From assembly GCA_951406725.2 (NCBI GenBank), contig OX597815.1:128712001-128776000 (forward strand): 64,000 nucleotides of DNA. The letters are read 5' to 3'. Both the position numbers and the translations under genes were made by a program. This DNA comes from Octopus vulgaris. Taxonomy: Eukaryota. The first letter of the stretch is position 1, and each line of letters begins with the position of its first letter. This document shows, one piece after another, positions 150-51,707 of the stretch. Under the pieces are notes generated by a model. The model made no database searches and had not been told where the DNA came from. It worked only from the letters and a program-made list of their open reading frames with translations.

Positions 150-840
150 AATTGTTTCTAATTTGGGCACAAGAGCAGTAGTTTGAGGGAAGGGGTGTAG
201 TTCATTAAATTGACCCTGATACATGACTGGTACTTTATTTCATCAACCTTGAAACAATAAATAGCAAAATTGACTTCGGTGTGATTTGAACACAGAACGC
301 AATGTCAAAACAAAGGCCAAAAAGCATTTTTAGCGATACTTTTACAATTCTACCCATCCATTGCTCTGACGATGAAAGTAATAATAGTTTCAAATTTTAG
401 CAGAAGGTCAGCTATTTTGGGGGAGGAGATAAGTCGATCACATTGACCCCGGTGCTCAATTGGTATTCATTTTACTGACCCCAAAAAGATGAAAGGCAAA
501 GTCAACCTTGGAAGAATTTGAACTGAGAGCAAAAGCAGATGAAAAGCTGCTAAGCACATTACCTGGTATGCTAATGATTCTACCAGGTCATTGTTTTAAT
601 AATAATAATAATAATAATAGCAGCAATAATAATTCTTTTTAACTTTAGTCACAAGGCCAGCACTGTTAGTAGGAGAGGATTAATCAATTATATCAAACCC
701 CAGTATTTAACTGGTACTCTATTTTATTTATTCTGAAAGGCTGAAAAGGTTAAGTTGGCCTTGGCAGAATTTGAACTCAGAACTTATAAGCAAAAACACT
801 GCTAACCATTTCTTCTGATGCTGTAATATTTCTGCCAAAA
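150..840 (-). mobile_element. Three head-to-tail copies of a tRNA-derived SINE (family A)
   Basis: Three copies of ggcacaaggcc...ctggtact...gatgaaaggcaaagtc...atttgaactcagaa, the reverse complement of the family-A copy at 16594. Separated by (AAT)n. Confidence 0.85.
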
Positions 841-6729: not shown

Positions 6730-6778
<49 letters not shown>

Positions 6779-9275: not shown

Positions 9276-11310
9276 TAATGATAATAATAAATGAGTAGTA
9301 TAGAAAATGAATTCATACAACAAATAAGAAATCAAAATCTTGATGAGGCTGGATCACTACCAGAGGGTTTTGATTTACTATAAATTTTAAATATTCAAGA
9401 AGTTAACCACAAGATACAGTTGAAACACATCTTTTCCACATAAATTTACCTAAGATCAAAGTTTCGCATTGTTCATCCTGTTTTGATCCATTCTTTCCAT
9501 ATTTTTTCCATAATACCTGACCATTTCATTTTTATCACTGACAATATTGCATATATTAACTATATTAATTCTTTTGTTATCATATTTCCTTTGAAATATG
9601 ATTTTGTTACAATGAATTTTTAAAATGATGATGAATTTAATAAAATTATTTTGTAATTATTTATCTGGAATTTTGGTATGTGAATTAACTTGAAATATTG
9701 TTGTAAAGATTTAATCTACTACATTTGATGGTATATACAAGGCGCACTTTTTTTCAAAAAGATATCTCCTGATCCTGTATGTAAAGTTGGGCCTATATTA
9801 CATGCTTTAATACCCTAAAATCATTTTTTAAAATCATTTTCCCTGGACATACACTGCTGACATTGGAATGCATCTAATTTGCCACATGTCTTTGATGCTA
9901 TCAAATACAGTCTTGGGAAAGTTGGTATCAAAAGAGTTTAAAATATACATCTTATCTTTGTCTAATTTTTGTGTAGGTACTGAAAACTGTGATATAAGTA
10001 TCACTTGGCATTGATTAAAGTTCTTTCTCTCTAATTTCATTTTCACTAGTTTTGACATGAGGAATATTAATGTCTGCCTGTGCTTGTTATATGAGAGTTA
10101 GAACATTTTCTCTCACTTATTTTCTGTATTCTAACAGAGAAAATCTTAAAATTCTTCTTCAGTGTTTGTTTTGTCAGTCATATTGGATGTGTCATTTTTG
10201 AAAAATGTATGTGTATGGGAGAAATTCTCTAATTATTGTATACTTACAGTAGTTTTTAAATTGTACACCAAGAGTTACTAACATTTAATTGTAAAATGTT
10301 TTTTATTCAGTCAGTATAAGAAATTTCTCTGACAAATAGATATTTGAATAAAAATTTATTACAGTTTTAAGAAATTTGTTTGTGGCCATGTTATTTTGGG
10401 TTCAGTTCCACTGTGCAATACCCTGGGGTATTTCTACTATAGAGGCATGTTTGGTTATGTGGTTTAGAAGTTCTCTTTGCAACCATGGGGTTTTGGGTTC
10501 AATCTCATTATATGTATCTTGGACAAATGTCTTCTGCTATAGCTCTGGACTAACCAAGGCTTTGTTAGAGAACATATTTGATAGAAACTGAAAAGAAACC
10601 CCTTGCGTGCATGCACGTGTGTGAGAGACCTTATCTTAACATGCATGCTAATTGTAAACAAAACTGTCATCTTACAAGCAGTGATGTTTGTATGTAGTTT
10701 TCCAGTCAGTGGTCCCCATTTTTGATACTCACCTTCCTGATGAAATTTATAAAAGCAAAGTAATGTCAATCTATACAAATTTATGTATGCCAATTTTTCT
10801 ACAGCATAAATTTACAGTTTACCCACTGTAGTAAAGTTAGTTTGTTAAACACTGAGTGAGCACCCTGTGTTGTGTAAGTTTATCATACCATATAAGTTTA
10901 ATACCACACCACTACGAACAACAACAACAACATGATTTTTTAATGCCTTTGGTCGACATGTTTAGCTCCAGGTTATCTCTCATTGAGCACACTTAAGATC
11001 AAAGACACTCCATTTGCAGCCATCAACTTTTAAGATGGCAAGTTGTGATCTGAGGGAAATTTGGTTACATATTTCTAATAAGTCAACCAACTTAGCTACA
11101 TATTTCTAATAAGTCAACCAGAGGTGCACCCTCATCTATATACTGTAACTTTTATTGCATGTATTTGTTTTAACATTGCCACAAATATCCACTTTCCTTC
11201 CTGATGGGGATACTGTCCAGAGAATTAAATCTGGTTCTTGAGCTGGTTGCAGTTTCACCACTTAAAAACTATCATGGCTTCACACTGTTGAAAATATCTT
11301 GTGTTCGTTT

Positions 11311-11355
<45 letters not shown>

Positions 11356-12093
11356 TGTATTAAGGCTAATTTCATCAATATTAGTCTGGGAATCCTGCAG
11401 AAGGGTACTACTCGTTCTCTCAACTCTTTGTTACCATATTTCAGATCATTTTACAACAAACTTTTATTTCATATAATTCAGTGTGGTTTCTGGCAGGATG
11501 GTATCAAGAGGGTTAACTTATTGGACAAAAAAAATGCTTGTGAATCTTGTTTTATATTTTTAGCTGCTTTTGAACTTGTAAAAACAAATAAGTTACAAGC
11601 TTCACACCCGTAATACATCTGAAGATTCCAACTTATTTTTATCAGGAATGTATTCTTGTTTACATCTATTGTTTACTAACCTTGCTCTCTGTCGGGGAGT
11701 TATATTGGGAATATGTTCTTGTTTATTAACCTTGTTCTGTGGAGTTTTAACATTTTTTAATGAAAAAGCCCTGCCCCAAAAAATTGGAATTTTTTTTCCC
11801 ACAACATATTTCATTCTTTGTCGTCACTGAATTGACTTGTGCTAAAACAGAATTCCGACATTTTCCTCAAATTCTAATGTTTCTTCTTGATAGAATGTGT
11901 AATAATCTGCCATAATTAATTACAATTAACAATCATACAAAATGACTGCAGATATTAATGAATGTTTCTTTTGTTTTTTTTCTTTTCACACACATACTCA
12001 TAGACAGAGACACATATACACACACCTTCATATACATACATACACACAAATATATTTCTATATAATTTCTCTCATCTTCTTTGGTATTTTCAG

Positions 12094-12191
12094 TATCAGA
12101 CAATTCCAAGCAATCTTATCTGAAATGTTTGGTGTGTGGAGATAAATCATCTGGAATCCATTATGGCGTGTTGGCATGTGAAGGTTGCAAG
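12094..12191 (+). CDS. Nuclear receptor exon A: first zinc finger and P-box
   Basis: tttcag|TA..., translates [32 protein letters not shown], then |gtaaga donor. The phase-0 intron after CEGCK is a common nuclear-receptor intron position. Not present in the ORF track in this frame. Confidence 0.95.
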
Positions 12192-14495: not shown

Positions 14496-14646
14496 GGATT
14501 TTTTAGACGTGCTTTGCAAGATATTGGTGACCCAACTCGGAAGAAGTGTTTTTATAATAAGAACTGTGAAATAACAGTGCAAACAAGGAACCGTTGTCAG
14601 TACTGCCGTCTGCAGAAATGTTTGGCATTGGGCATGTCGAGAACAG
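14496..14646 (+). CDS. Nuclear receptor exon B: second zinc finger
   Basis: attag|GGA..., translates [50 protein letters not shown] plus 1 nt, then |gttagt. 151 nt. Confidence 0.96.
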
Positions 14647-14915: not shown

Positions 14916-16285
14916 CTGCCAAACTTGGCCGGCGTTCTCGAAAGATGCGAGAGATGATAAAGACAATTGAAGATACTCAGACTCAACAAGCATTACATGG
15001 TTTATTAAGCTTACAGTCAGAGATGACTCCTGAGATGCTACCAGCATTTGTCCAAGCTCCCAGCCCCAGCAACTCAGATCTGTCACCTCTAGTTTCTTCA
15101 ACAGCTGCTGTCACATCATCCATACCTATTGACTCAGAGGCAAACTCTGTCAACAGATCTTCTGTCACTGCGCTTTCCCTTCTTCTGAAGAACAGAGCTG
15201 TCAGCACTTGTGTCCCTAAGATGGCAGTTGAAGAGCATAAACTACTTGCTAATGGAGATAATTCTCATATCACTAACATATCAGATGCTGAGTCTGATGA
15301 GGGCTCAAAGTTACCTGAGCCTGTTGATGACAGTCCTTATCCCAAATCCATTGCCGTTGAACGCAGTCCTATATCTGTTCCTTCAACAGCGCACAAACCT
15401 GCTGTACAGTCGATTGTTAGTTCTATCTTAAGTATTCCTTCTAGTGTCTCATTTGGTGTTCAACAATCCTCGTTTGTATTGAAACCCAGCACCGATATTC
15501 GGCCAACTTCCCATGCAATCACTACAGTATCTCCTTCAACACAACGCTTTCATAACTCCTATATAAATCGAACGTCGTCAGTGCAGCTTATGAACCCGGT
15601 GAGCACCAACTCAGTTGTTGTCAACAAGCACACTGACCGCGCTCTGTCCACAACTGTCAGTACTATAACTACTACTACACAGCCATCTGTAATCGTAGCC
15701 AACACTTCATTAGATCTGCGTAAGACTTTCAAGCATGACAAACCGGTGAATCGAAGTCCAATTAAAAAGCGACCCTACATGATTTCTGAACAAGAGGAGA
15801 GCTGTAATAGTATTCAGCCAAGTAAACACATCAAGCAAGAGGTGAAGGACAGTGACAGCTGTTTCAATAATCTGTCACCTAAGGAGACTGTGTCTCCAGA
15901 ACCGGTGAATCTATCCTGTAATATGACATCTACTCCCTGGCATCGAATGGAACAGCAGATACCTGACACGACATCCCCTAGTTTAACTGTAGTCAAACAA
16001 GAACGGCTCAGTTATCGGTCATCTGCTGACCATGTGATGACTTTGCCATCTGCAGCTCATGATAATGCTGCTGGTGCAAGCATTAGTGGACACCATTTGA
16101 ATAATTTGCGTAGAAGTGAGGATGAAACCATTCCAAACATGACAATGATAATAGAAGAAGCTTTCAGCAACAGCTTCGGTTGCCAAGAAAGTCGAATGAC
16201 AGCCATTCAAATGCGTTATCAGGAGCTGAAGCCAAGCAAATTATTGGACAGTATGATAGGAAAACGTCTTAATGAGGATATACAG
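14916..16285 (+). CDS. Nuclear receptor exon C: C-terminal extension/T-box plus long Ser/Thr/Pro-rich hinge and start of LBD
   Basis: ttgcag|CT GCC AAA..., AAKLGRRSRK...KRLNEDIQ, then |gtaagt. 1370 nt with no stop. It is the internal part of ORF 14852..16420. Phase 1 in and phase 0 out match the neighbouring exons. Confidence 0.92.
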
Positions 16286-21500: not shown

Positions 21501-22290
21501 TGGCTCCTGGAGTCTTGCATGCATAACGGACTTACTACCTGCAGCCTATGGCACCATGCTATTCGTTCTTTTCAGCTATCTAATACTTTCCTGATTATTC
21601 TGCCTGTACCAAGGAGGCAAACCTTTTGTAACAGTTCTACTAGGCACTCTATTCCCAGTAGATGCCTTCTGGTACTGTTCCCAAGGACCCAACAATAATT
21701 GGCACTATCTTCACCTTCATTTTCCATAGCTATTTTGCACTTAAGAGTGTTGTATCTATCTATTATCTTTTCACTTTACTTCTTGACTATTCGTGGGTCA
21801 AAGGGGCATGCAACGTCAACTATATAGCATATGTGGTGCATCTTGTCCTCCACCATGATGTCTGGTCTGTTATGCTCTAGCACCTGATCTGTTTGGATTG
21901 GGAATTCCTAGAGGATTTTGCTAGTCTCCAACTCTACCAATCTCTGCGGTTTGTGCTCCTGCCTCTCTAGCCCCCACTTTTCGCACAGTTGCTAATGTAG
22001 CACTTTCACTACCTGGTTGTGTTGCCACAACTTATAGTGGTTTGGGGCAAGTCTAGGGCATTCATTCATTGCAGATGCAGCACATTGGTGACATTTGCTC
22101 ATTCCTCAGGTCGACCTTCGAGTTTGTAGCCAGAGCTCGGTCCTGCGCTGCCCATATAATACTCTTGGTCTCTTTTTTTAGGGTTCCTTTCATCAGCCAA
22201 TCCCATTTACTTTTTCCAGCAACTTCTGCTGTGGCTAATTGGAATTGATTGTGTAGTCCCTTCTTTTGTAATTCTTCATGTCCTTTTTGT
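21490..22290 (-). mobile_element. R4/Dong-like (restriction-like endonuclease) non-LTR retrotransposon 3' fragment
   Basis: The minus strand reads KIL*EFPIQTDQVLEHNRPDIMVEDKMHHICYIVDVACPFDPRI ... KIVPIIVGSLGTVP ... ELLQKVCLLGTGRIIRKVLDS*. Has the PD..D nuclease motif, with stops and frameshifts. The 5' junction abuts (TTA)n. Confidence 0.85.
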
Positions 22291-22314
22291 ACTTATTATT
22301 ATTATTATTATTAA

Positions 22315-24300
22315 GACTGAGCTGGCAAAATTGTTAGTGCATTAGACAAAATGCTTAGCAACATTTCTTCTGGCTCTTTACATTTTGTGTCCAAGTTTTG
22401 TTGTGGTTGACTTTGAGATCAAGCTTATTTTATCATCCTTTCAGGGCCAATAAAGTACCAGAAAAATACTGTAATCTATTTGATTGACTAATCCTTTCTC
22501 CAAATTTCCCACCTTGCATCTATGTTAGAATGATTATTTATTGTTGTTGTTATTGTTGTTAACATCAGTGGATCAAGGAATCAATGAAATACTAGTTGTA
22601 TTTCATTGTTCTGAACCTGTATCCCACAACACCCACCTTGTCCTCCTATACTAATTAATTACTAGGATGGGTTTCATCAACTGTACTTACCTCTAAATTG
22701 TGCCAGTACTAAAAATCATTATTGTAGATGGCAGAATTGATATCAAACAAAATTTTTTGGTATTCAGTTACATCTCATCATCACCATTCTCAGTATCAAT
22801 TACTAGAGGCAGTGTAAAAATAAGTTATTTCCTAAATATTTATAGCTTTGCACCAGTTAATTCATTATTTTTGAAGGTCATTTTTTTTCTCTAGCTTATT
22901 TAATGTTTTGTTTTGGGATCATTTACAAATGTTATAAATAATTTTTAGCTTGAAAAATCATTGTTATTACTAAAGAGTGGTGATGGTTAAATTGGTTGAG
23001 CATCAAGCACATTACTTTGTAGAATTTTGATTTATCTTTTCATATTTTGAGTTCAAACCCAATAAAGTACTGGCCAGGTACTGGGGTTGTTGTAATCAAC
23101 TTAGCAACTTCTCTAAAACTTGCTGGCCTTGTGCCAAAATTTGAAAGTCTTATTAGTGAAGCAGTCAGCTAGCAGAAACATTAGAGTGGCAAATAAAATA
23201 CCTTGTGGTATTTCTTCCCATTTCTGAGTTCAAATCCTGCTGAGGTCAAGTTTGCCTTTCATTCTTGTGAAGTCAATAAAATAGATGTGTCAAGTAATGG
23301 GATTGGTGGTATTGACTAATTCCCCTTCCTCAAAATCATCAGACTTGTGCCTAAATGTTTAGTGGCATTCCATCCGTCGTTACATTCTGAGTTCAAATTC
23401 CACCAAGATTTACTTTACCTTTCGTCCTTTCAGGGTCAATGAAATAAGTACCAGCTACGCACTGGGGTCAATGTAACTGACTATCCCCTTTCCTCAAAGT
23501 TTCAGGCTTTGTGTCTATAATAGAAAGGATTATTATTATTATTTAAGAATTTTGTATGTTACGCATGTGTCCCTTCTTTTTCAGTGTATACAATGTATAC
23601 GTGTTTCATTTTTTTTCCCCCATCATTTCATTATATATAAACCCCACACTTTATGTCTGTCTTTGTATTGCCCCTCCCATCATCCTTCACCCTTGTGGCA
23701 AATAAATGAAATTATTATTATTAAGGCAGAATCATTAACACGCTGGACAAAATAATTAGCAGTATTTTGCCCATCGCTACATTCTGAGTTCAAATTCCAC
23801 TGGGGTTGATAAATGAAGTACCGGTGAAACACTGGGGTTGACGTAATCGACTAGTCCCCTCCTCCAAAATTTCAGGCCTTGTGCCTTTAGTAGAAAGGAT
23901 TATTATTATTATTATTATCATTATTATTATTATTATTATTATTATTAGCTTATTTTGGCTGTTATATTTCTTTCTACTGCAGATACAAGGCCTGAAATTT
24001 TGGGGGATGGGGCAAGTTGGTTATATCTATGTAATCAACTAAATTGCCTTTAAATGACATTATTATGATTATTGTTGTTGTTGTTAAGACAGTGAGCTAG
24101 CAGAATTGTTTTCACACTGGACAAAATGCTTAGTGGCATTTCGTCAACCTTTATGCTCTGAGTTAAAATTCTGCCAAGGTTGACTTCACCTTTCATCCTT
24201 TTTGGGGTTGATAAATGAAGTACCAGTCAAGTACTGGGATCAATGTGGTCAACTTTCCTCATCCCCAAAATTTCAGGCCTTGTGCATATAGTAGAAAGGA
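22315..24300 (+). mobile_element. Chain of at least 5 family-A SINE copies (sense)
   Basis: Repeated tgagttcaaat...cctttcatcc...aagtaccag...ggccttgtgcc, joined by (TTA)n. Confidence 0.85.
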
Positions 24301-25463: not shown

Positions 25464-25640
25464 AATGGTCCCTCATTGTCTTCTAGAACTGAAAAGTTAG
25501 GCGATCTTTGCTGGCAAAGTTTTCAACACCGTATTAACAAAACCATACAAGATGTAATAGTATTTGCTAAAAAAATCCCTGGCTTTACATCATTAGAACA
25601 AGACAGTCAGATTAAATTAATAAAAGGGGGTTGTTTTGAG
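25464..25640 (+). CDS. Nuclear receptor exon D: LBD helices 3-5
   Basis: tttcag|AAT..., NGPSLSSRTEKLGDLCWQSFQHRINKTIQDVIVFAKKIPGFTSLEQDSQIKLIKGGCFE, then |gtaaat. Contains the LBD signature FAKxIPGFxxLxxDxQIxL. Confidence 0.95.
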
Positions 25641-26333: not shown

Positions 26334-26553
26334 ATTGCTTGTGTAGTTCATTCCAATTTGGTTGATGGGGACAGCAATACCATTATAGCCTCAGACTCTG
26401 GGTTGCTAATGAGCCGAGATGACATGAAAGCTGGATTTCCTCTTGGAGAACATTTTGTTGACTTTCTCTTTAACTTCTGTACCCGCTTCAATGCCTTTAA
26501 TTTGCGTGACATAGAAACAGCATTGTTCAGTTCTCTGGTGCTAATATCTCCAG
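26334..26553 (+). CDS. Nuclear receptor exon E: LBD helices 5-8
   Basis: ttcag|ATT..., IACVVHSNL...FNFCTRFNAFNLRDIETALFSSLVLISP plus G, then |gtaact. Matches the NR1 pattern LxDxExALFSxxVLISPD. Confidence 0.95.
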
Positions 26554-30612: not shown

Positions 30613-30854
30613 ATCGTCATGGTCTTGAACGTAGTGATAAAATTAACCGGCTTCAAGAACTTTTAATCCAGGCTTTGCAGCATGAAATTAATGCTGCTCA
30701 TCCTGATGAAGTGGGACTTTTTCCACGATTGCTAATGAGTATCTCCAGTCTGAGGGAGCTTGGTGTTGAACACCGTAAAATGTTGGAATCGCTGAAAGGA
30801 CAAATACACTTCCAGCATGACCTCTATGCTGAAACATTTGATCTGATAACTTAA
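30613..30854 (+). CDS. Nuclear receptor exon F (last coding exon): LBD helices 9-12/AF-2
   Basis: tttcag|AT CGT..., DRHGLERSDKINRLQELLIQALQHEINAAHPDEVGLFPRLLMSISSLRELGVEHRKMLESLKGQIHFQHDLYAETFDLIT*. Missed by the ORF track. Confidence 0.95.
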
Positions 30855-32111
30855 CTCCATTCTTTCATCTCTTAGAATTGATCACCTGGCTCTGTATTTG
30901 ATACTTTCTATCGTTCAGCCTCCCTCCCCCCCACTGTTCCCCCTGCCCCCCTCTACCTTCGGCCTCTGATTGAGATTGTTTCCGTAGTGACAAAAACGAA
31001 ATGGTAGAAGTTGCTGCTAACGCATCTTCATGCACACTTTTTCTCTGTGTGGTTGTGCTTGTATTGTATTTGAACTCTAGCTCTCCATGTGCAAACAGTT
31101 GAAACCTGTTGTTCATATTAAAAGCACTGACAAAGTTCCTGAAACTAAATCACTGCTAACAAGGCTGTTGTATAAATAAGGTTTGCAGACTGTTGATGCA
31201 GATACCATGGAGATGAATCTCTTTCATCCTGTCTTGGAGCATGTTTATTATCATTATTATTATTATAATGTTATTTTTTATTTATCTTAGTTTATTTAAA
31301 AAAATTTTTTCATTGTTGAATTCAGTGAGAGCCAATTGTCTTTTTTTTTTTTTTTTTATCAGTAGGGGATGAATCTTTTATTTTGGAACTGTCTGCACTC
31401 ATGATTACTAGCTTAATTGAAATTACAAAGAAGAGTAAAAAAAAAAATTATTATTAATTAATGAAAAATGAAGAATTTAAAATTTTTTTTTCCTCTCATT
31501 TTCCTTGCCAATAATAAGTCTGTTTGTTTATGTCTGTCATTGCTTGGCAGGTATCCTGCCATTTGAGGTTATGAAATAACAACCCACATTCAATATAATG
31601 GTTTGCTTTAATACAATATATGATTCTCATTCGGTGTAATTTTTAACAGATCATGAGATAAAAAAACAAAAAACAGAAATGAAAAAAGCAAAAAATACTT
31701 CCATTTTTTTACCATCTTGACAAATTATTTTTTAAAAAATGCAGAATATTTGCCCTCCTCTCTGTCTCCTCATTTTTTTGGTATAATTTAATTTTTTTTA
31801 GAATTTTTAAAATTTATTTATTTTTATTCGCTCTTTCAGATTCTTTCACACATTGTTTCTGTTTATGTCCTGTTTATTCTTTAGGTCTTATATTTGTTAA
31901 GGAATTCTGAAAACATATCTGAAGGCATTATGGAATTATAAATAAAAACTTTTATTACTTTTCTAATTAATAATATGCTGCTGAAAAAAATCTCATTCCA
32001 AATAGTTTTTCCCCCCTCTTCCCCAAATGAGGACAACTTTTGCTACTATCACCATCAACATGACCATCACCACTATTACAAATACTTCTACTACTATTTT
32101 ATCATTATTAT

Positions 32112-32335
32112 TAAGATGGTGAGTTGGAAGAGTTGTTAGTGCATCAGACAAAATGCTTTACAGCATTTCATCCAGCTCTTTACATGCTATGCTCAAATCC
32201 TTCTGAGGTCAACTTTGCCTTTCATCCCTCCAAGGTCGATAAAAAAAGTACCAGTCAAGTACTGGGGTCAATGTAATTGACTTCCTCCACCCCATAAAAT
32301 TGCTGGCCTTGTGCCAAAATTTGTAAGAATTATTA
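32112..32335 (+). mobile_element. Family-A SINE
   Basis: aagatggtgagttgg...aaaatgctta...ctttgcctttcatcc...aagtaccagtcaagtactggggtcaat...ggccttgtgcc, flanked by (TTA)n. Confidence 0.85.
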
Positions 32336-35300
32336 TTACTATTAGTTGTAGTATTGGCACATTATAAATCTTAAATATTGGCGTTTCAGTTTTATGACGA
32401 TGGGTTTTTGTTGTTGTTGTTTTTTTAATATCCTGACTAGTATCTCTGGTCCTTTTCTAATTCTTATTTTAGGATCCACCCTGGTAAGAATGGATTCTAA
32501 AATGACACATTCATTTCACAGTCTGTTCAGTCATTCCTGGTATTGTTTAGAAAACCAATAATGCCAGAAATCATCAGCGCCCCTGTCATTTCTCTTATAA
32601 GCCTTCATCTGTTCCTTAAACACATTTAAGTAACTTAGGTAGTTACAATTTAATGGTTTTCTTACTCCATCACTCAACTCCCAAGCCCTCTCCCCCTCAA
32701 TATGTCCTTCAGTATTGTAGCACATGATTTGTTTCATTGATCTTGCTTTCTGTCTGTGTTATAAATACATTAGTTTTGTTTTGGTTTTTTTCTAGATCTT
32801 CTGCATCCAGTATCTGGATCTTTTCTCAATATAACATTCTCTTTGTTTTTCATGGAACAGTCATGCTGCCAATACATTTAATGTTGTGTGGATTTGAACA
32901 TGATATAGACAATCATTTGATAAAATAATTAATAAAAGGGCATCTTTTTAAAATTGGATAAATGTTAAAATATCGAGTCATTGAAAAAGTTCATTACTAA
33001 ATTACAATTACAAATTACTATACTGTTGGAATCTAATTACTAATGCCATAACTGGCTGGTTTTAGTAATGGTTCTAAAGGCATTTACCAAAATGTCTAAA
33101 TTTTCAAACTCATCTAAGCCACTCAGTCCGACATGGAATTATGGGCGTACAGTAAAGATGATGTGAATGTAAGAACATGTCTTTAAATGACAATATTTAT
33201 CTGTGAAATGGCAAATACTGTAGAATTGTGTCAAGCTCCCGGTGAGACAAGTCTTTGATCCAAATTCAATTCTCGGTTTTAATTCTTTTACTTTATGTTG
33301 CTAATGCCTTTGCTTAAAAGGCATCAATGTCACAAAATCGCATTCCCAACCAATTTTACTACTACTACTTTTACTTTTCATATATCACAGGCATTGTGCC
33401 TACTTGGAAAAAGAAATTCAGTTTACAAGCAAAGCAAAATATATGTTTCTCTGTTTCTTTTAAGCCACATTTTCTTTTGTTTTTTCTTAGTTATTCCTTC
33501 TTGCTTGTTGCCTTTTGGCTGCTGCAATATTTTGTCAAAGTTATACTTTAACTAAATACTGATACTTCCAAAAGAAAATGAGTGATCATCCTTCCTCTTT
33601 TCTTTGAAGTCTGTATTTGTCTACAGTCAATTTTGGTAATGTCTATTAATTGCATGTTATCATTTTCTTTGACTGATATTGCTGTGTGCCAGGTAGTTGT
33701 GCTATTTTGATTAAGTCCAAGTATCCTATATCTAAGTATGATTCCTCATGTTCTAATTAATTAGTGCAACCTAGCTCCAAGTATAGACTTTGGGATAGTC
33801 TTTTTCTTTTTGGAACTGTACTTGTGTAGCAGATGACTAGAGCTGAGACTGTATATTGAAACTGAAGCAAACTACATTGTAGAGGAGTCATTTTAGCCAT
33901 TTAATAACACAGATCTGTTAAATTCAATTTGAATTTAAATTATCTCATGGGATGTCAAAGTTTTTATCACACAACTGTAACTTGGTCAGTAACACTTTGA
34001 TCCATGTCAGTGACTGGGTCAGAGATGTATGATGAAGGTTTTAATTCTTCATGAAATATATTTAAAGTGAATTTAACAGCTTTGCATGTTGTTAACTGGC
34101 TAGAATGACTCTCTCATGATGTAATTGTTATTAACTTTAAAATTTCTTAAAAGTCGCTTTTTCATGACAATCTTCATTTCTCTGAATTAATTACCTATTA
34201 ACTAACAACATGCTTAATCATATGTTTATCTTGTAAATAATTATTTCCTTTATTTCTGAATTAATTCACAAATTCTTCAATTTTTTTTATTATTTTGTTC
34301 ATTAAAACCTAACCAGGTTGCTTTTCAATCAATACCAGTGATTAATCCATACAGAAATATACATTTTTTTTAACCCACCTTTTCTCTAAATCTTTTCCTT
34401 GTTGTCCAAAATAATTTGGTTTGATCCTTCAAAGACATTGTTCCTTCTAACAGTTTTGTTACAGAGATACTAAATAAATATCTCTTTCTCTTAGAAAAAT
34501 AATAGTTAAACTTCGAATACCTTCATTTGTTGCTTAGTTTGTTTTCATAATTAATAGATTTCATCAATGATTAATCAACTATTTTGATAGGTATTGCAAA
34601 GTTGCTTGTAGCTTAAATCTATGTCTTTTTATTCATTTATAGATATTCACATCAACTCTGTTTTTATTCCTCATTGTCAAGCCACTCTTTGGTTAGGGTA
34701 ATGATGTTGTTCTTGATGATTCTCATAAATTCTGTGCATTCCATTTTCCAAGAATAAGGAGCAATATCATAGCTGTGTTATAGTTTATCTATGTTATAGC
34801 TTAATATGTGTGTATCAATAACTTACATCTCTTTGGTTCCTGGTGACTTTCATAACCTTGTTGTTTCTTAGGAATGAAATCATTACCAAACATAGATATA
34901 GTGAGGCTTTTATTTTCTCTTTCTTGGCTTCCCTTTTAGCCCTTTACAAAAAACTGTCATGGGCTTGATTCTGAAGTCGGGTGGCATGTTGTACTTTTGG
35001 GTAAGGCACATCATTTCATGTTGCTCCAGTTTACTCAGCTGAAAATGTGTACCTGCCAGCTGTTGGTGCAACCTTCTCTTCTTCCAGCTGTCACATCCTT
35101 GATGTTCTGCTGGATCAAGTGTGAGAGGGCCAAGAGGGTGCCTGATTACACAGGCACCTACAACAATTGGTAAATACAACATACTGACTACTGAGTCATC
35201 TATGCTTGCATGTGATGGCTATGTTCATACCAGTACAGGTCTGTTTATGTACCTAAATCGGTTAACATTCCATGTAGTATATTCCAGACCTTGATTCAAA

Positions 35301-38300
35301 ATCATATTATATGGAAAAATTTTATTCTCCATATGAGCATGTATTTGCATTTCCAGTCAGTGAGTTGTCTTGAAGCAAGAGTTGATATAATTTTGAAGAA
35401 TTGTACTTGGTTACCTATCTGTTGTTAGGAAGAATAATTTTGTTCTTAATCCCAAATTCTTGAATAACTTCTAATATCAGAAATTTTGCTGATTGGAACA
35501 TTACTTAACAATGCTTTCAGTTTAATGACTGATGTGAATTTTAATGCAGTTTTGTCTTCAATTTTGACTTAGACTTTTCTTTTTACTTGTGATCTATATT
35601 ATTAGATTTAACTTACAAATCATCTAAATATGATTGATTATTCATTCTGTGTATGCTATAAAAATCTGTTAATTGTTTGTTACATCTGTTGATTTCTTTT
35701 AGTTAGCTTTGACTAAGCTTTATTTGTAACAATATCTTGATTAAATTTCCAGCTTGTAGATTCTGTCCCTTACCCATTCATATATCTCCTATAATTTTCA
35801 TTCAGTTCTTTCAAATTTATTATTACCCAATTTGTGTGGGGAATTTTTTAACCCTAGTTGTGTCCCATTTCTCTTGTCTCTGATGCTTCTGACAAAGGTG
35901 TGAACCTCATAATATTGCTTTCCACTTAACTAGAACAAGTTTTTGTTTTTTTGATAAATATTTATGGCTTTGTGTAAGCCATCAACACTCTTGAATTTCA
36001 TGTTTATTTTTATGATTTAAACAATTCTGCACCTTAATGAATGGTTGCAATTTTTTTTTTTTTTTACTTCATTTCTTTTTTTTTAAAGTTTTATTAAAAC
36101 ATTTTCTAAATCTTTTTTTTTCTTCTTACTTTTGCTATTTCATTCTGATGTTTAGAATACATTTTCATGTGATTTACTTCCATGATAATAATAATAACCA
36201 CAATAATAATAATGATGATGTATTATCATGTTCTATAATTTCTTCTCTCAAATTCCTGTTTCATCAACATTATCTGACATGTTATGATTTTTCAGACTTT
36301 TACCAACCATCTATAATATTTTCTTCGTCTTCATCATTTGCTAATTTTTCTCTTTACTTCTTTTATTATTATTATTTCCTCTATTGATTCATATCTTCCC
36401 TTTACACCAGTGTCTGTTATCAAACAAATATTAGATATTCTATGATCTTGTATCAAGTACTTTTCCTCATCTTTTTTTTTTATATATATATATATTTTTA
36501 CCTTCTGGTAACTGTGAACTGTTGATTAGATCCCTGTTGAACTTCCATACTCATATTTAATCTTTGTCACTGCAGCAACTTCAAAACACAACACTGAAAT
36601 TAAGTGTCATTCATATTTCTGTTGTTGCTTTCTACAGCTTTACTTGTTTACAATATCAAAGGGTGACAAATTCTGCTGATCTTGATCATATCAGAATCTC
36701 TTGGTAAAAATAAACTGGAGTAGTTTTCTCATTGCTTATACCAGGCCCAAGCAAAGACTTTAATCAAGCTTGCAAAGTAACAAATAGTGTTTATTACTTT
36801 TATAGTGCCCTTGCTGCCGGCTTACAGCAGTGAGATGTACTTGTGTACATCTAAGGTGACCAGCAAACTTTAACTATCTTGGCCAAGGTCCCGGTGTAGA
36901 ACCAGTGAATGGGAACATATTGTTGACCTTTTTATTTATTTTTCATGTAAATCTGATTCTAAGAAAATCATATTTAAACCGGTGCTTTTGGTTCTGTAAG
37001 AACTATTTCCTCTGCTACGTAAGTGTGTGTATTTTGGAACTGTTAAAAAACATCTAGTACAACATATCTATGGAGTAACAAATTTATATTGATGTGAATT
37101 GTATTATCTTCTAAATATTAAGTAGCTATAGTAGTTCTTATTATAATGTTAATTCGGTGTTAATTTCTACTTCTCATCCCCCTCCCTTGCTCATTTTCTT
37201 GGATTACTCATAAGTACCAGAATTATTTTTGTTTTACCATTCAACTGCAGTCTACAAATTACATATCTTTCACAAATGGCTTCCTTTATACTTTATGTGT
37301 AGTGTTTGGTGTTTCCTCTCATAAATCTCATAACTCTTTCTTTGGGGTGAGCGACTCCTTTCAAATGTAAGTTTGCAATCATTAATGCAACTTTTGATTC
37401 TAAATGATTTTTTTTAAATTTTAGAATTCATACATAAACCGGTGCTTTTGATTCTGCAAGAACCACTTATACTATCACATCTTCCCCAATGTCTGATCAA
37501 ATATTGTCTGCAACTCTTGAAAACAATGCTCTGTTTTTAATTTTTTCTCTTTTTGTTCCGGTTTTGATTTTTTTTTTTTTTTTATTGTCTTCTCAAAATA
37601 CATTTCATAAATACAATCTTTTCAATATATTTCATGTCTTTACAATAACATCATCCTCCTGGTGGGTTGTCTTCAATTTTAGTTAAACATTTACACTTTT
37701 TTCCTCAGTGGTTTATTTAATCAACATTTACTAAAATTACTTGCCAGCTTCCTTTCCTTTGCTACACTTTTTCTCAGAATGCTTGATACAAATGTTCTGA
37801 GTTTTTCCCTTGTCCTTCTGCCGAAATATGTTTCCTTATTATGCCAAGCATTCTAATAACTAACTGTTTTGTCTTTTAGCTAAATATCAGTTTTAACAAT
37901 TTACTCTATTCAGGATACTGTAAAAATTACACACCTCTTTGACAGCATTTATTATGAATTTTAACAATTTAATATATAAGGAGAATCATATTAAAAATAT
38001 TTGCTGTCTTGTACTTTACCTACTAGAGAGAAGGAGTTTAAACACTTTTAGTAAATATTTTACTTACAATATATTACTCTGATTAATTATGGGATGTAGA
38101 TATAACCTCTTGGTTAAGAAGTTTGCTTCACAATTATATGGTTTTAGATTTAATGTTACTATGTGGTATCTTAGACGTGTCTTCTATCAGAGCCTCAAGT
38201 TGACCAGTGTCTTGTGAATGAAATATGGTAGACAGAAACCATGTGAAAAATCATTGGTGTAACCATTCCTATTCTTGTTTGATAAACTTAGTCTGGCCTG

Positions 38301-38774
38301 TGACTGCCACAGAGTTTGCTCTGCTGCAAGCATTCTGGTTAAGTTACAAGGCTAAAGACAACTTCCTTCCAAAAGTCTTTGAGGCTTTGAAAAGTGTCAC
38401 AGGTGGTGCCCTTCCCTCTTTAACAACAACAACAATAATAATAATAATAATAATAATAGATGTGTTTGGCACAATGTTGGAATTGAGACATATTGTTGAC
38501 CTACAGAAAAGTACTATCTGGTATTCTGCATGAATCCTAAGGATAAATTTTGTGATTAAAGAGGCTTGTCACCAAACCTCAGGATAACCTCTCTTCTAAA
38601 CATTTTTTACCTTGCTCTAACTAAAGTTAAAGAGGAATTAATAAACATTACTGCCTTGAATGCAACACAAGATGTTACATACACTCAGTGTCTGGTGCTG
38701 TCACCTTATAATTATTGTTGAAGTTTATAAATTATGGCATTTTTAGTGAAATAGGTTGGTAAACTTTTTTATTT

Positions 38775-39900
38775 TTCTGGTGGGGCAGAGGACAAAATGC
38801 TTAGTTGCATTTCATCTGTCTTCATGTTCTGAGTTCAAATTCCTCCAAGGTCAACTTTATGTTTCATCCTTTTGGGGTTAATAAAATAAGTACCAGTCAA
38901 ATGCTAGGGTTGATGTAATCAATTGGTTTTCACTCCCAAAATTTCAGTCTTGTGCCTGTTGTAGAAAAGGATCATTATTATTACGGCAGTGAGCTGGTAG
39001 AAACATTACCATGGTGGACAAAATACTGTCTTTACATTCTCAGTTCAAATTCCACTGAGATCGACTTTGCCTTTCATTCTTTTGGGGTTGATAAATTAAG
39101 TATGAGTTGTGTGCTGGGGTTGATCTAATCAATTGGCCCCCTCCCCAAAAATTTTGGGCCTTGTACCTAGGGTAGAAAAGATTATTATTATTATTAAAGC
39201 AACAAACTGGCAGAATCATTAGCAAGCTTTGCTTTTCATCTTATGAGGTCAATAAACTAAAATACCATTCAAGTACTTCAGGCCTTGTAGGTTAAAAACA
39301 GTTAGTATTAGTAGTATACACTGTGAAGTAGTTGACATTAGGAAAGGCATCAAGTCATAGAAACCAAAGCAGACATTGGTGCTTGACACAGCTCTACAGC
39401 TTGTCAGAGCCTTCATGCCAGCATGGAAAACAAACGTTAAATGATTATTATTATTAATATGGCAAGCTGGCAGATTCACTAGCATGTCAGATAAAATCCT
39501 TAGCAGTATTTCATCATTCTTTATGTTCTGAATTCAAATTCTGCCGTGGTTGACTTTATCTTTCATCCTTTTGGGGTCTATAAAATAAGTACCAGTTGAC
39601 CACTGGGGCCAATGTAATTAACTTACCCACTCCCCAAAATTGTTGGCCTTGTGCCAAAATAGTATGATGATAATTATTATTATTATCAAAGCGGCGAGAT
39701 GGCAGAATCGTTAGCATGCTGGGTGAAATATTTAGCAGTATTTTGTCTGTCGCTATGTTCTGAGTCCAAATTCTGTTGAGGTCAACTTAGCCTTTCATCC
39801 TTTCAAGATTGATAAAATAAGTACCAGTTGAACTGGGGTGGATGTAATCAACTCATCCCCTTCCCCAAAATTGCTGCCCTTGTGGCAAAATTTGAAACCA
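38775..39900 (+). mobile_element. Chain of 4-5 family-A SINE copies, all sense, with a nested family-C piece
   Basis: Repeated gttcaaattc...tttcatcctt...taaaataagtaccag...cttgtgcc, separated by (TTA)n. Confidence 0.85.
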
Positions 39901-40680
39901 TTAGTATTATTATTATTTTAATTTTAATATATTCCAACTTTAGTTGGCTTTTAAAAAAAATTCAACAAACATCCAGTACAGTGATGATGTCAAACTTTGA
40001 AAATTTGACATCAAATTAAAGTTTATAAAGAACTAAAATCTCTTGTTTTTAGATTCATTTACTTGCAATAGTTACATCTTTTTAATGAGAAAGTCAATAA
40101 TGGCACATTCCATTTCTTGATTTTAGTATCACAAACGAGAGTTTTCATAAAAAAAAAGAAAAGGCAAAAAGTTAAACCAACAGAATGTAGATGTGAATGA
40201 ATGAAGGAAAATTTTAATTAGAGGCACAGTGCCTATGTGGTTAAGGTACTGCACTATTTGTTAACCACAAGGTCATGATTTCAAACCTCCTTCATAGTTA
40301 CTGTTGAAAGAGCTTTCAGTTGTAAGAAAAAGCAACTGCTCAAATAATAGACATTTCCTACTTGTATTTGAGCAGGGAAATACAGAAAGAAAGAAAATAT
40401 TTTGATTGACATTAAATGTACAATAGGAAAGTGTTTGTGAGGAAAGAAAAGAGAATGACAACATTAATTGCTTGCACTTCAAAAAACAGTCTTATGAGAT
40501 GTAAATATTTAATGTTAATGGGATAAAACTAGCAGCTTAGAAAATCTGAACAACATTATTCAAGACTTAAGGTTTATACTGTGCTAATAACAATGTTCTT
40601 AATATAGCCATGTTCATGCAGTCATCATTATTATCAGGAATATTTATTTTTATTACAATGATAAAGCAAATATTATTATT

Positions 40681-41112
40681 AAGGTGATCAGCTGGCAGAA
40701 ACATTAGTGCATCAAATAAAATGCTTAGTGGCATTTTTCCCCACACTTTCAAATTCTGGTTTCAAATTCTGTCAAGTCAGCTTTACCTTTCACCTTTTCA
40801 GGATCAATAAAATAAGTACCAGTTGAGCACTGGGGGTCAATGTAATTGACTAACTCCTTCCCTTAAAATTGCTGACCTTATGCCAAAATTTGAAGCAATT
40901 ATTAAAGATGGTGAGCTGGCAGAATTGTTAGGATTTTGGGAAAAAATTGCTTAGTGGCATTTCTTCTAACACTTTACATTCAGGGTTCAAATTCTGTTGA
41001 GGTCAGCTTTGCTTTTCATCCTTTCAGGGTCAATAAAATAAATACCAGTTGAGTGCTGGGGTCAACTAGCACCTTCCCCCAAAATTCCAGGCCTTATGCC
41101 TATAGTAGAAAG
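40681..41112 (+). mobile_element. Two tandem family-A SINE copies
   Basis: Both start aag(g/a)tg..agctggcagaa and contain B-box and central-domain motifs. Confidence 0.85.
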
Positions 41113-44100
41113 AATTATTTTATTGTTTATTATACAGAAAATATATAACTGTTTTTACATTAAAACCCTAAAAACTAGTTTAAGGTCCATCTTTCCTTCT
41201 GAAACATGTTTTCTGAGAATTTCTTTTCATGATCCCAAAAGCTACACAATCTGTACCTTTCAATCCATCATTTTTTTTTTCTTCAAATAGTCTTACCAAT
41301 TCAAATATTTAAATCAATTAAACTGTGCTAAACAAATTATTTACCTTTTTCTTTTTAAAGAAAAACCTGTACATTAGCAACAACCATATTATTTCTTGGT
41401 TTTATCTCCAATTATTTTTTTTTCATCATCATTTTTTTTTTTTAGTTGTGAAAATTATTTTTTAAAATTTTCTGCTAATGGGAAAAAATATAAAGAAGAA
41501 AAGAAACACACAAAACAAAAGATATTGACTTCATCTTTAAAAACAAACTGTAAAAACTTTGTATTTTCCTTTTTTAAAGGAATCATATCTGTCCTTATAA
41601 TGAGACATAGTAACCTCTGTTATTAATAATTCGGTAATTCCCTGCGCCTTATAAGCGTTGTCTCAACTCTCTAAGAAACCGGTGCTGACATCTTGCTACT
41701 TTTGGAAGAACTGCTTCTTTGGTTCTTGAATAATAATAAAATAAAAAAAAACCAGTCAAGTTGTCATTTCTAACAAATGACACAGCTTTGTATTGTTTCA
41801 CTCCTTGAGTTTTCTTTTTTTTTTTTTTATTTGCTCCTGTAAGAATGGTAAAAGATATTTAAAAAAAAAAAGCTTCTGGCTACCAGCATTGCTGTAGATC
41901 AGTAGTGCATGATCAGTGACATTGCTTGTTCTTTGATATTCAGTTTGTAAATGGAGCAACCATTTCAATCATGCCAAACTGAAAAAAAAAAAAGAAAGAA
42001 AAACATTAATATTACCCAATTCTCAAAACTGGCAGAGTAGTCTTTATTTATTTTATTTACTCATGCTAGATTTTTCAACACTGAAACAACAACAACAACA
42101 AAAAGCTAGTAATATATATATCTTTTATTGTATATTTCTTATTTAATTTTTAAGCATTCAAACCAACCAACTATGATTGACAAAAACCCTTGTTATTTAT
42201 TTAATCTTTTTTTTTTCTTTTGCTCCTGTTTTTTTATCTTTTTTTTTTTCCAACTTGCTTAGAAGGACAAATTTTTCAAATGGATAACAAGGGTTACTTG
42301 CCCATCAGATGTCAATAAGGAAGCAGGATATTAATGAGATTGTGATCAGCATCACCCAAAATTCTTGACTAGTAAAATTGTGTTAAACAGCATCTATGTC
42401 TTTCTCTCTCTTTCTCTCTCTCTCACTGCTGATCTAACAACATCTATATTACGTCCAAATCATATTATACTTGTGGGGAATTAACTATTTAAATACACTT
42501 TTGGGGTTTTCTTTTATCCTAAATTGGATTTTAAATTTAAAAATTTAACTTGCTTTTTATTTTGTGCATTGTCTTTTTTTAACATTGTTTCATGAAACAC
42601 TCATTATTATTCTTTTTGTTGTTGTTGTGTTAAGTTCATTCAATGTTCCTCTCCTGTTTCTTGTAGCCCCAAACATTTTTGACATTTACCTTACAGTTGT
42701 TTCATTCTCTCTAACTACCTACTACACCTTTTTTTGTTGTTTCTTTTAAACTCAACTGACCTACTCAACTATGATCCCAGTGACTGGTCTTTTTCCTCCT
42801 CTTTCTTTTTTTTTTTTTTTTTAACCTTTCCTCCAAGCAATGAAATTTCTTTTCTTCATTCCCTGAAAACAACAAACAAACAAACAAAAAGAAAAAAGAA
42901 CTGATCTATCTATACCGGTGTGATATATATTAATGCATTATTTCAAATTCAACTTTTTTTGAACGGCTTTTCAATTTTTTTTTTTATGTAACTGTTTTTA
43001 TATTTTACTCATGCTTTCGACAAATTTCTGTCAATGCAGTTTTGGTCTGGGAAGGCATGCTACATTTTTTTTTTTTTGCTTACCTATGAATGTTTAAACA
43101 ACCAGATAGTGTGAGAAATCATTGATCTGTGCTATTAAAAGGAACTTCACAATTTCTTACTTTTATCCTGACTTAATTATTATTTTTTCTTTTATAATTG
43201 ATTGACTTTTAATAAACAAACAAAACAAAAGCAACAAATAATTACTATTAGGTAGGTAGTTCTTCTTTAATGACTAATTACTTTTAACAGTAATAATAAA
43301 TTGACCATTTTGGCCATTGTTTCTCTTCTTTTCTCAAATGTAATTTATGTTTTAATTAATCCAAATTTAAAAGAAAGAAATTAAATTAATATTAGTACAC
43401 GACATAAAGGTAATTATAAAATTAGTATATTGTAAATGACCACTTGGTCATTAAAAGATAATTAATAAAGCTTTTAGTGTATCTTAACACTAAAACATTC
43501 CATTCCTTATACATGAAATCTAAATTCAACACAGGTCTACTTTATCAGCAAACTCTCTTATTTCCAATTTAGTAAAAAAGCATTACTACAGTTTATAGTT
43601 TATAACATGATAGTATTTGTCTCATTCTCTTTCTTTTTTTCTCTCATAAGTTTGGCATTGTTTTATTTTTCATCAAACAATCATTCTGAAATGGTTTTAT
43701 GAAACAAAAATATTCATAAATACCTGTGTTTTGTCGTTCAAAATTTTAAAGTGATAGAGAGAGAGAGACTTAATGTAGTGCCAGACTAATTTACCTTATA
43801 GTCTATAGATTTGTCCCTTGATGTTCTTGTTTCTTGTTCTGAGGAAGTAAACTATCTTCAGGTAAGTCAAATGTAATTTGTGTTAGCAGTCAGTAACACT
43901 AAGAGTAACTATTTAAGGAGTATACCAAACCAGAATACCTAGTTTTGCTACATTCTGTGTATCTGTTGTTATTGAGAAATGGCATTTGGTCAGGTTTTGA
44001 AAGGAATCACAAAAAGAAATTTTGCAAGTCGCAAAAACAAATTTCAGATTTTGCTAAAATGGTCCTACAGGTGCATCAAAATGTTTGAAGATCTTTAGTA

Positions 44101-47100: not shown

Positions 47101-47209
47101 AGTGTAGAGATCTGTTCTTGGCTATTCAGACATGTACTTTATATCAAAATGCCTTCTATAATATTTCCAAAGTGCAGATTCCAGGATAGGTGAATAAAAT
47201 ATAACATAG

Positions 47210-47309
47210 AGGTATAGGTCTTAATTTATTACAGCCATTTCGAGCGACTCCTTTCCATTAATCAAAAGGAGTTGCTTGAAATGGCTGGAATGAATTGATA
47301 CCTGTACCT
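47210..47309 (+). other. 45-bp fold-back hairpin (pre-miRNA-like or MITE remnant)
   Basis: Arms 47210-47254 and 47265-47309: 38 Watson-Crick pairs, 5 G-U pairs, 2 mismatches, 10-nt loop. Confidence 0.8.
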
Positions 47310-50084
47310 TTACATATATATATATAATATAAATTAAGTTTTACAAGGCAAAGGTTGAGAGTAGCTTTGAGGTTTCAGCTTACCAGCTGTCATGAGATTT
47401 AGAAAATATTGAGTTTAATTTTAAATTGTTTTTATATCTAACTTCACATAAAAACAAACATGAATATGAACAATTGCAAAGTAGTACATAGAATTCTGCA
47501 AGTCTGGCTGATTACTGTATTATCTAAGCATGAATCTTTTTGTAGCCCACATTTAAATCCTATCCTATCATCATCTGTTCTTCATGATGGCAAGAGTTGG
47601 ACAGTTTGACAGGAGCTGACCAGCTGGAGAACTGTCCAGGCTCCATTTGTATGTTTTGGCATGGTTTCTGTGACTGGATGCCCTTCTTAATGCCAACCAT
47701 TTTACAGAGTGTATAGGTGTTTTTAATGTGACACAGGTATGCGTGCTTTTTACATGGCACCAGTACCCATGAGCAGACTGTTTATTAAATTACATACACT
47801 AACATATCTTAGAGACATTACCTAAGTGCTGTCACTGACAATGTTACAGCACTGCAGTACTGTGGGTTCAAAATCATTGCATTATGATGGTAAATAAACA
47901 GAGAAATACAGTAGTGTTGAAGATCTAAGTAAGCTACTCAAAATACTTTCAAACTGATAACATTAACAATATATCTAATATTTGCTTCGTTGTATCTTGG
48001 GAGGGTCATTATGCCAATAATAAACACATGCACTGGTTCTATTCCACTTGTTGCTTATTTGTCAATTGGTTAAACATTTAATCACTTAACTAATTGATTG
48101 TTTGATTAATTAATCAGTCAATCAGCTAGGTTTGTCAATGTCCTTTTGTTACCATCACAACCTCGTCAATGACATGCCCTCTCTATTTCTGGTCTGTTTG
48201 TCTTTCTTCTAGTTTACAGGTTTTCTATTTATATTACTCTCCTTTTTGATTACTCTAATATGTAAGTTTTAATTTTATTTACATTAAGTGAAGCTTTCTT
48301 AACCAATAAGACCTTAGTGTTCTGGTTTTAAAGAAACCAATAGGGTTCTCTAAAACTTTTGAACCTCAGCAATAACTGCTTTGATCTAAAGTATGAACAA
48401 AGAAGAAATTACATCAATTTCATTGCTTGTGAGAATTTTTTTGTGTTTTTAAAGGCTTTTAAGAAATTTGTTCATTCCATTTATTTTTCTTTTTTTCTTT
48501 TTCCTAGTTAAAAAATCTTAGTGTCACTAAAACACTTATTGTAAATCATAAGGGACACTGATGCTTTTCTTTACCACAGCAGCTAATTGTTGCAATATAT
48601 ACACACACATATACATATGTGCATGGCCACAGTCTTTTTTATCTGAAACCGGTTAAAGGGTAATATACACACACATCTCTCTCTTTCTCACATATATGTA
48701 TATATATATATATCTATTGTGTATGTTTATATATATATATAGACAAACACACAAGAAATAAAAAGAAAGAGGAAACACTTTTTTACTTAGAAACTCAGAT
48801 AAGGTTTTAACACCATTGGGCCCATTTTCACTGACTATTTAAAATGGCTTTATATAACATTTCAATTTCTTACATGCACACACACATCACGCATATCAGT
48901 GGGTGAAACTGAATTACAGAAGTTAATTTTTTTATATTTTATCATGTCTTAAGCATAGTTCTTGATAGAACTTCTTCAACATCCCTAAACTTAATCTGTC
49001 TGTATCACCAGAATCAACACCATTGCTGCTCATCTCTGGTTTCTGTAATAAAAGCAGATAAAAGGTAAATTCCTTCTTGATAGTCTCAACTCTAACAGCT
49101 TCTGTTTAAGTAAATTCTAGGTTCTAAAGTTAAAGATAATATAAGTAGTAAGCAATTGTCTTAAATTTCTTAATTGATACACTTTTCTTTTCTTTTCTTT
49201 TTTTTTGTTAATCAAATTATTTTAGATTGCACTGAATCAGTGTGGGTTTTTTTTCTTAGTTACTGATTAAATAATTTAAACTACAAAACACAGTAAATTC
49301 TTTTAATTAATAAACTTCAGAATTTGAGGAATGTCATGATAGCATACGTTGGCAAAAATCAGTAAAGTTTACAAATATAAGTTTGTAAAAGTAGAAAGAA
49401 GAGTGTTGGTAGGAATTCTAATGTCTTAATTTTTCATTATATATCTGTTAAATTATGCTGAATTAATGAAGAATTTAAAACATGAAATTTTATTAGGTTT
49501 TATTTTAGACCAAAACAGGAAATTTTGTATCATGAAACCAAAGCTGGTCTCATGCAGGTTAGTATCAAATGGATTAAGCAAGGGTCTTTGAAGTGGGGTG
49601 GAATTGAAATTAAATTTCCCTAAGTTTTATGAATTTGCTTATGTAATCCTAATCCTTTAAAACAGCAGCAATCTATCTTTCCTGTTTACTCTATATAACA
49701 ATGTTTTAATCACTTCTTCCTTTTGTTAAATTTGTTGCATTTCCAGTTTCTATTTTTTAACAATTCTCAATCCTACCACTACCAATCACCTGTACATTTA
49801 GTTATTCCTTTTGTCCACTTAACTTTTTATCATGCAAATATACTCATCAGCTCTTTCACTTAATTATATAAGTTACTCAATATTTAGAAAGAAATTAGGC
49901 CCTTATACACACACACACACACACACACTATTACATTCAATGCCTTGCCTATCTGAATACCACCCGAGTTAACTTTATATTTCTTCTCATTTGAGGAATT
50001 AAGAATTTAACAACTTGATTCAGTCAACTATGAAACCCTTTCATTCATACTTAGAAACAGAAATATATGTGTATATTTTGTATA

Positions 50085-51707
<1,623 letters not shown>

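Follow-up and report, generated by a model that had tools for sequence, protein, structure and literature searches.

We analysed a 64,000-nucleotide (nt) stretch of the Octopus vulgaris genome (assembly GCA_951406725.2, contig OX597815.1, positions 128,712,001 to 128,776,000 of the forward strand; hereafter the window), which carries a nuclear receptor gene on its plus strand. The six-base word CCGGTG recurs on the sense strand of this gene and in the DNA downstream of it. The same word is the complement of CACCGG, the seed (nucleotides 2-7) of the MIR-36 microRNA family. An earlier inspection of the letters (the sequence-only reading) had noticed six copies beyond the stop codon. It proposed that the receptor mRNA may be a multi-site target of a MIR-36-type or cephalopod-specific microRNA with this seed, acting through a very long 3′ untranslated region (UTR).

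Six coding exons encode the receptor. Over these exons it is identical to the O. vulgaris/O. sinensis protein P0033, and it is 99% identical to O. bimaculoides LOC106880133. The first zinc finger of the DNA-binding domain is encoded at 12094..12191 (tblastn of P0001/P0033, 100%, with splice signals) and the second at 14496..14646 (tblastn and splice signals). A large hinge exon at 14916..16285, in which 457 consecutive residues are identical to P0033, holds three copies of CCGGTG. The ligand-binding domain is encoded at 25464..25640 (Pfam Hormone_recep, E 6e-6) and 26334..26553 (tblastn), and the last coding exon, 30613..30854, ends in a TAA stop at 30852-30854. The window yielded no exon for the first ~105 residues, and therefore 1-12093 is most likely an intron of the receptor gene.

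In the databases the receptor is called NR1D2-like or E75B-like (O. bimaculoides LOC106880133, O. sinensis LOC115232352). Its best matches among solved structures were PPAR-gamma, RAR and the ligand-binding domain of NR1D2. In the oyster, NR1D and NR1CDEF are separate genes (PMC4070562). Because of the mixed structure matches and the separate oyster genes, we labelled the protein as probably NR1C-F-related, within the NR1 subfamily. It resembles the mollusc NR1C/D/E/F-related receptors, with related proteins found throughout the molluscs as well as in a nemertean and a brachiopod. The hinge exon contains a motif, RSPIKKRPY, that is conserved in molluscs and other lophotrochozoans. It also contains PVNLS, which we take to resemble the CtBP-binding motif PxDLS; several bivalves carry PLDLS elsewhere in the hinge.

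CCGGTG occurred 11 times on the plus strand of the window and was absent from the minus strand. The six copies reported before were all exact (33239, 36891, 36979, 37439, 41679 and 42915), and the count is larger than reported, with five plus-strand copies overlooked at 449, 15596, 15743, 15902 and 23821. The description of the DNA otherwise held: the window is poor in CpG (observed-to-expected ratio 0.21), CACCGG does not occur anywhere in it, and exactly 10 CCGG words lie between 31 and 59 kb, six of which read CCGGTG. When hexamers were counted against dinucleotide shuffles, the 11 matches compared with a mean of 1.86 (sd 1.27, maximum 5; 100 shuffles, both strands). CCGGTG ranked first of 1185 CpG-containing hexamers under order-1, order-2 and order-3 models of the whole window, and the Bonferroni P values over 4096 words were 4e-6, 7e-5 and 0.12, respectively. 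The signal vanished under an order-4 model, because such a model learns the sites themselves.

The excess was marked after the stop codon. Between 30855 and 43300, six copies were observed where 0.11 (order 1) or 0.34 (order 2) were expected, and none of 300 dinucleotide shuffles of this region produced any CpG hexamer as extreme, even when only five sites were counted. As controls we took six stretches of real DNA, two from the bivalve loci described below and four, of which two overlap, from the window. The best P value of any CpG hexamer in them was 2e-4 or weaker, versus 2e-9 here (order 1). Of the 49 CpGs in 30855-43300, 6 lie in CCGGTG, whereas the introns and more distal DNA (46.9 kb) have 2 among 242, both of them variants of a repeat described below (Fisher P = 4e-4; P = 2e-3 if two copies that share a local duplicate are collapsed). 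A general effect of the CCGG context was rejected, as 13 CCGG words remain among ~350 CpGs once the 11 sites are removed, which is near expectation. The window is T-rich and strand-skewed, and among its 126 CpG-containing word pairs the 11:0 bias is the first. The sense-strand CCGGTG motif is real.

The three copies in the hinge exon are all in frame. The first is part of CCCGGTGA at 15595..15602 (N-P-V-S, read as CCG GTG AGC), an 8-mer match to the MIR-36 seed. The other two are CCGGTGA at 15743..15749 (K-P-V-N) and 15902..15908 (E-P-V-N), each preceded by A and each a 7-mer-A1 match. CCG is used for only 3 of the 40 proline codons, each time as CCG GTG A, and the fourth Pro-Val is written CCT GTT. 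When synonymous codons were shuffled, at least three sites arose in 99 of 100000 trials (P ~0.001). This is an independent test, because the choice of the word had already been made on the downstream region. Both O. bimaculoides and a 70% identical orthologue (P0002) retain the three tripeptides, and P0002 has lost the fourth Pro-Val tripeptide. The background conservation of tripeptides is 0.41, so their retention is weak evidence and concerns the protein level only. Given the exon match to P0033, these three sites lie in the mature mRNA.

Two of the 11 copies have a different origin and stand outside the proposed signal. The intronic copies at 449..454 and 23821..23826 lie in short interspersed nuclear elements (SINEs), in a minus-oriented and a plus-oriented copy, respectively. 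Each is a single-base variant of the SINE core, at positions covered by 15 and 18 other copies. The variant base was found in 1 of 17 SINE cores at each of the two positions. A SINE origin of the nine non-intronic sites was rejected, since none of them is covered by any SINE copy; this agrees with the statement of the sequence-only reading that its six downstream sites lie outside recognised transposons. The sites at 36979 and 37439 fall within a 39-nt local duplicate (36965-37003 and 37425-37463) that is 87% identical and keeps the CpG in both copies, and therefore the downstream sites represent five independent origins, not six. All seven SINE hits in 30855-43300 (from 32104 to 41125) are plus-oriented, and upstream eight are minus- and seven plus-oriented. 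One possible cause of the uniform orientation is that double-stranded RNA is avoided, and another is insertion in tandem.

These observations bear on a rival explanation, that the words arose by chance and local history. On this account a few CpG words came from A-to-G changes in relic plus-oriented SINE cores or from duplication, and conserved Pro-Val dipeptides gave rise to the coding sites by coincidence. Two of the 11 copies are indeed SINE variants and two more go back to one duplication, while the uniformly oriented SINE hits could bias relic words to one strand. Moreover, the motif was picked by eye among many possible words, and its corrected P value is not small under the order-3 model. 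However, SINE cover is lacking at all nine non-intronic sites, and the frequency of the G variant in the SINE cores matches the 5.6% share of CG in CG plus CA of the region, whereas G is present in 6 of the 11 CCRGTG words there (P = 1e-5). The coding result was also obtained out of sample. We therefore regard chance and local history as unlikely.

The six downstream sites are spread from 2.4 to 12.1 kb beyond the stop codon. The nearest is a second CCCGGTGA at 33238..33245, an 8-mer match 2385 nt after the stop, and it is followed by CCCGGTG at 36890..36896, a 7-mer-m8 match. The other four are 6-mers: the two duplicate copies at 36979..36984 and 37439..37444 and a third site at 41679..41684, all in the context ACCGGTGC, and the last site at 42915..42920 in the context ACCGGTGT, 12061 nt after the stop. 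Three AATAAA signals, at 43211, 43295 and 43464 (43211..43469), come after it. As judged from the letters, the one at 43295 is a candidate poly(A) site, with CA and a T-rich tract behind it. CCGGTG is absent from the remaining 21 kb of the window. The stretch 30855..43320, which is T-rich, is a candidate 3′ UTR with a putative extent of ~12.4 kb. A hidden coding exon in the downstream DNA was rejected, as there was no tblastn hit beyond 30900 and six stray open reading frames (ORFs) yielded only one sub-threshold zf-RVT hit.

We looked for the words of this region in public sequencing runs. Fourteen runs guessed to be RNA, from five studies, hold a share of 0.41-0.85 of the sampled words of 33200-43190, and 13 of them (four studies) hold at least half. 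None of these runs is recorded as RNA, and the values are word shares and not read mapping; four same-species runs with shares of 0.00-0.03 were left out of the evidence. The best four putative-RNA runs, all of one study, reached 0.82-0.85, on par with a set of 3828 million letters (0.83). The contig sets of the best runs comprise only 46-199 million letters, while a single chromosome-scale contig in these species already has 208-216 million. Such a high share in small contig sets suggests that 33.2-43.2 kb is transcribed. Octopus annotation has accepted cleavage sites as far as 60 kb away from a gene (PMC9712504).

A related word shows a similar pattern in the candidate UTR. Outside SINEs, CCAGTG occurs five times on the plus strand (34335, 36407, 36902, 38204 and 42777) and not on the minus strand, against ~1.2 copies expected in the SINE-masked region (P ~0.01, uncorrected), and each copy is preceded by A or C. 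CCAGTG is one A-to-G step from CCGGTG, and the copy at 36902 lies 11 nt past the site at 36891. The five words could be sites that have decayed, relics of SINEs or pre-sites open to editing. The sites at 36979, 37439 and 41679 read CCGGTGCT and thus contain GGTGCT, which is presumably a 6-mer match of the miR-29 family; GGTGCT occurs five times on the plus and once on the minus strand of the region.

We compared the nine non-intronic sites with MIR-36 itself. In a snail and a tapeworm, miR-36 begins UCACCGGG (PMC7328434, PMC8016320), and MIR-36 is placed at the Protostomia node in the family table of MirGeneDB 3.0 (PMC11701709). Among 48 expected microRNA families, only MIR-1989 and MIR-242 are missing from octopus (PMC9699675). 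An octopus MIR-36 should therefore exist, and its presence is implied by these two facts together. CCGGTG is the exact sense-strand complement of its nucleotides 2-7 and is enriched over background, as in a MIR-36 seed target. The nine sites comprise two 8-mers (15595 and 33238), one 7-mer-m8 (36890), two 7-mer-A1 (15743 and 15902) and four 6-mers, which means that 5 of 9 belong to the effective classes. An A opposite nucleotide 1 is present in 4 of 9. Opposite nucleotide 8, where MIR-36 needs C, six of the nine carry A and none carries T or G. A hypothetical microRNA reading CACCGGU would have 6 of 9 sites as 7- or 8-mers, against 5 of 9 for MIR-36 with A1 counted. A literature text search for a microRNA of this type gave none relevant by title among the matches listed, and Rfam gave no match in the window.

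An alternative is that an RNA-binding protein, and not a microRNA, recognises (A/C)CCRGTG on the mRNA, with Smaug-type CNGG loops as one version. A sense-strand, exon-restricted distribution would suit any RNA-level factor. A or C precedes all nine sites and T, the commonest base, never does (P ~0.002-0.02), which MIR-36 alone leaves unexplained, and the CCAGTG words are patterned alike. On the other hand, the word has six bases, contains CpG and is an exact complement of a deeply conserved seed, so that a seed site is the simpler interpretation; we know of no protein with an (A/C)CCRGTG motif, although no search was aimed at one. The Smaug recognition element is CNGG in a hairpin loop, and other values of N are also used. 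None of the 11 local folds placed CCGG wholly in a hairpin loop, and CTGG (37 plus, 33 minus) and CAGG (18 plus, 26 minus) showed no sense bias. We consider a protein reader of this kind quite improbable.

Another candidate is a transcription factor, either Grainyhead/CP2 or one of the many octopus C2H2 zinc-finger proteins, that would bind the words as DNA, both within a 3′ enhancer and within the coding exon, and would shield the CpG from methylation. The Grainyhead/CP2 consensus is the palindrome AACCGGTT. Four of the sites read AAACCGGT and five read AACCGGT, which are near this consensus, and AAACCRGT occurs four times in the region versus two and two in flanking stretches of 30.6 and 20.7 kb. 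In octopus, GRHL and TFCP are each represented by a single gene (table S2 of PMC9699675). However, there is no full palindrome in the cluster, and the only one lies outside it at 48647. The G is on the same side and the same strand at every site, which a palindromic dimer would not require. In addition, enhancers would be expected in the introns and more distal DNA, yet these 46.9 kb contain no non-SINE site. This explanation is thus highly doubtful. Both the Smaug and the Grainyhead alternatives, which the sequence-only reading had named, fit worse than a CACCGG seed.

We used an alignment of nine last-exon peptides in one metagenome scan for orthologues. Among 130 candidate stretches examined, two loci were confirmed (L001 and L002), and for both the nearest proteins were from bivalves. 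L001 carries a single CCGGTGA, at 1447-1453 and 496 nt beyond the stop; for the 6881 nt examined, 0.14 CCGGTG were expected (P = 0.13). This copy adjoins an AATAAA and would be compatible with an older single MIR-36 site, and it is not significant alone. L002, examined over 1231 nt, carries no sense-strand copy and a single antisense copy.

Several observations weigh against a microRNA target. Neither of the two bivalve loci has a CCGGTG cluster, and in an alignment the three coding tripeptides are absent from six non-cephalopod molluscs; P-V-N-L-S may also be conserved for reasons of the protein. The strand bias alone is modest (11:0, P = 0.001) and ranks 48th of 1548 word pairs. Only two of the six downstream sites are 7- or 8-mers for MIR-36, and 6-mers without 3′ pairing are weak or largely inactive (PMC1043860). 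The nine sites are not notably unpaired in local folds (mean 0.29-0.55). 'Mir-36' and its seed words are absent from tables S1-S5 and the supplementary PDF of PMC9699675, which do not list the full complement, and snail libraries gave only 2 and 5 miR-36 reads (PMC7328434). Concerning the UTR, AATAAA is already present at 31941 and 32931, ahead of the first downstream site, and the median octopus 3′ UTR is 350-380 nt (PMC9699675), so that 12 kb would be extreme. We set the right boundary of the region with the sites already known: the confinement of the sites has P = 8e-5 with this boundary and P = 0.06 if all downstream DNA is counted.

The wobble sites suggested earlier added nothing. TTCGGTG does occur at 31630, 37153 and 58198 as claimed, with a further copy at 275. 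The two copies in the SINE-masked region are not a significant excess over the 0.16-0.48 expected, the background has two on the plus and three on the minus strand, and TCGGTG is not enriched either. The TTCGGTG set is also disfavoured because G:U pairs in the seed are always detrimental (PMC1043860). The proposal of a multi-site target was thus borne out in part. An RNA-level explanation with a CACCGG seed is the best fit, and the in-frame coding sites, one 8-mer and two 7-mer-A1, extend it beyond what had been seen; it lost ground with the four 6-mers, the two bivalve loci and the wobble words. The very long UTR found indirect support in the word shares, while the early AATAAA signals and the short median UTR count against it.

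On balance, we favour the interpretation that the nine sense-strand CCGGTG words, three coding and six downstream, are selected seed sites for a CACCGG-seed microRNA and that the receptor is a candidate target, with a probability of roughly 0.55. The receptor mRNA, whose mature form would include the downstream ~12 kb, would be repressed by a microRNA with CACCGG at nucleotides 2-7. This could be MIR-36 or a microRNA of coleoids that shares its core. The CpG in CCGGTG would escape methylation decay through the need to pair with the GG of the seed. Loaded Argonaute on several weak-to-medium sites would lower translation of the receptor or the stability of its mRNA, perhaps in eggs or embryos, by analogy with nematode miR-35-42.

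A more elaborate version is also conceivable, although we give it only a slim chance. In it, a second coleoid microRNA with a CACCGG core (CACCGGU; a MIR-36 paralogue or a novel family) and MIR-36 would both act on the receptor, via the 12-kb 3′ UTR and via synonymous codons in the cephalopod-specific part of the hinge. The five sense-only CCAGTG words would then be pre-sites that become seed matches through A-to-I editing, so that repression would depend on editing. Genome-wide, however, edit-created sites received no support in PMC9699675.

Some further features of the window lie apart from these sites. A sub-threshold zf-RVT match (E 0.001) on the minus strand at 22062-22292 is likely a fragment of a long interspersed nuclear element in an intron. 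A degenerate AT/ATGT microsatellite of 1.6 kb (50063-51693) is the source of long spurious ORFs. An inverted repeat of 53 nt at 47207-47312, near-perfect (81% complementary) and spacer-free, is a possible hairpin or miniature inverted-repeat transposable element, and it has no Rfam match.

Among the closest known systems is the set of targets of nematode miR-35-42 (PMC9413084, PMC4095049), in which the same seed complement lies on the sense strand of the mRNA; the nematode family is embryonic and its 3′ UTR targets have been validated. The octopus case differs in having nine sites, three in synonymous codons and six over a putative 12 kb, mostly 6-mers in the downstream part, and in its nuclear-receptor target, which is predicted from sequence. 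A literature search pairing the miR-35 seed with nhr-85 gave nothing related. The conserved 8-mer response elements that Zolotarov et al. 2022 (PMC9699675) described in 3′ UTRs of Octopus belong to the same species group and the same canonical seed mechanism, and the site at 33238 would qualify as one of these 8-mers if it is in a UTR. The median UTR of that set is 350-380 nt. Seed-only (5′ dominant) multi-site targets are a third parallel, as the presence of several copies makes weak seed sites more effective (Brennecke et al. 2005, PMC1043860). Multi-site microRNA targets are thus already known, and the receptor is a candidate new example. We found no report of a mollusc MIR-36 target or of this receptor gene in the literature searched, which leaves most subscription journals outside its scope, and identifiers of the gene appeared neither there nor in the searchable supplementary files of PMC9712504.

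Nematode embryos depend on MIR-36, and the family goes back to the protostome ancestor, yet the literature searched offered no mollusc target for it. If the interpretation favoured here is true, one transcript with nine seed matches, with its CpGs held against strong CpG loss and its codon choice shaped by them, would be a testable entry to the function of MIR-36-type microRNAs in cephalopods. It also suggests a genome-wide screen, in which the sense-strand survival of CpG-containing seed words in methylated, CpG-poor genomes would flag selected targets without alignment.

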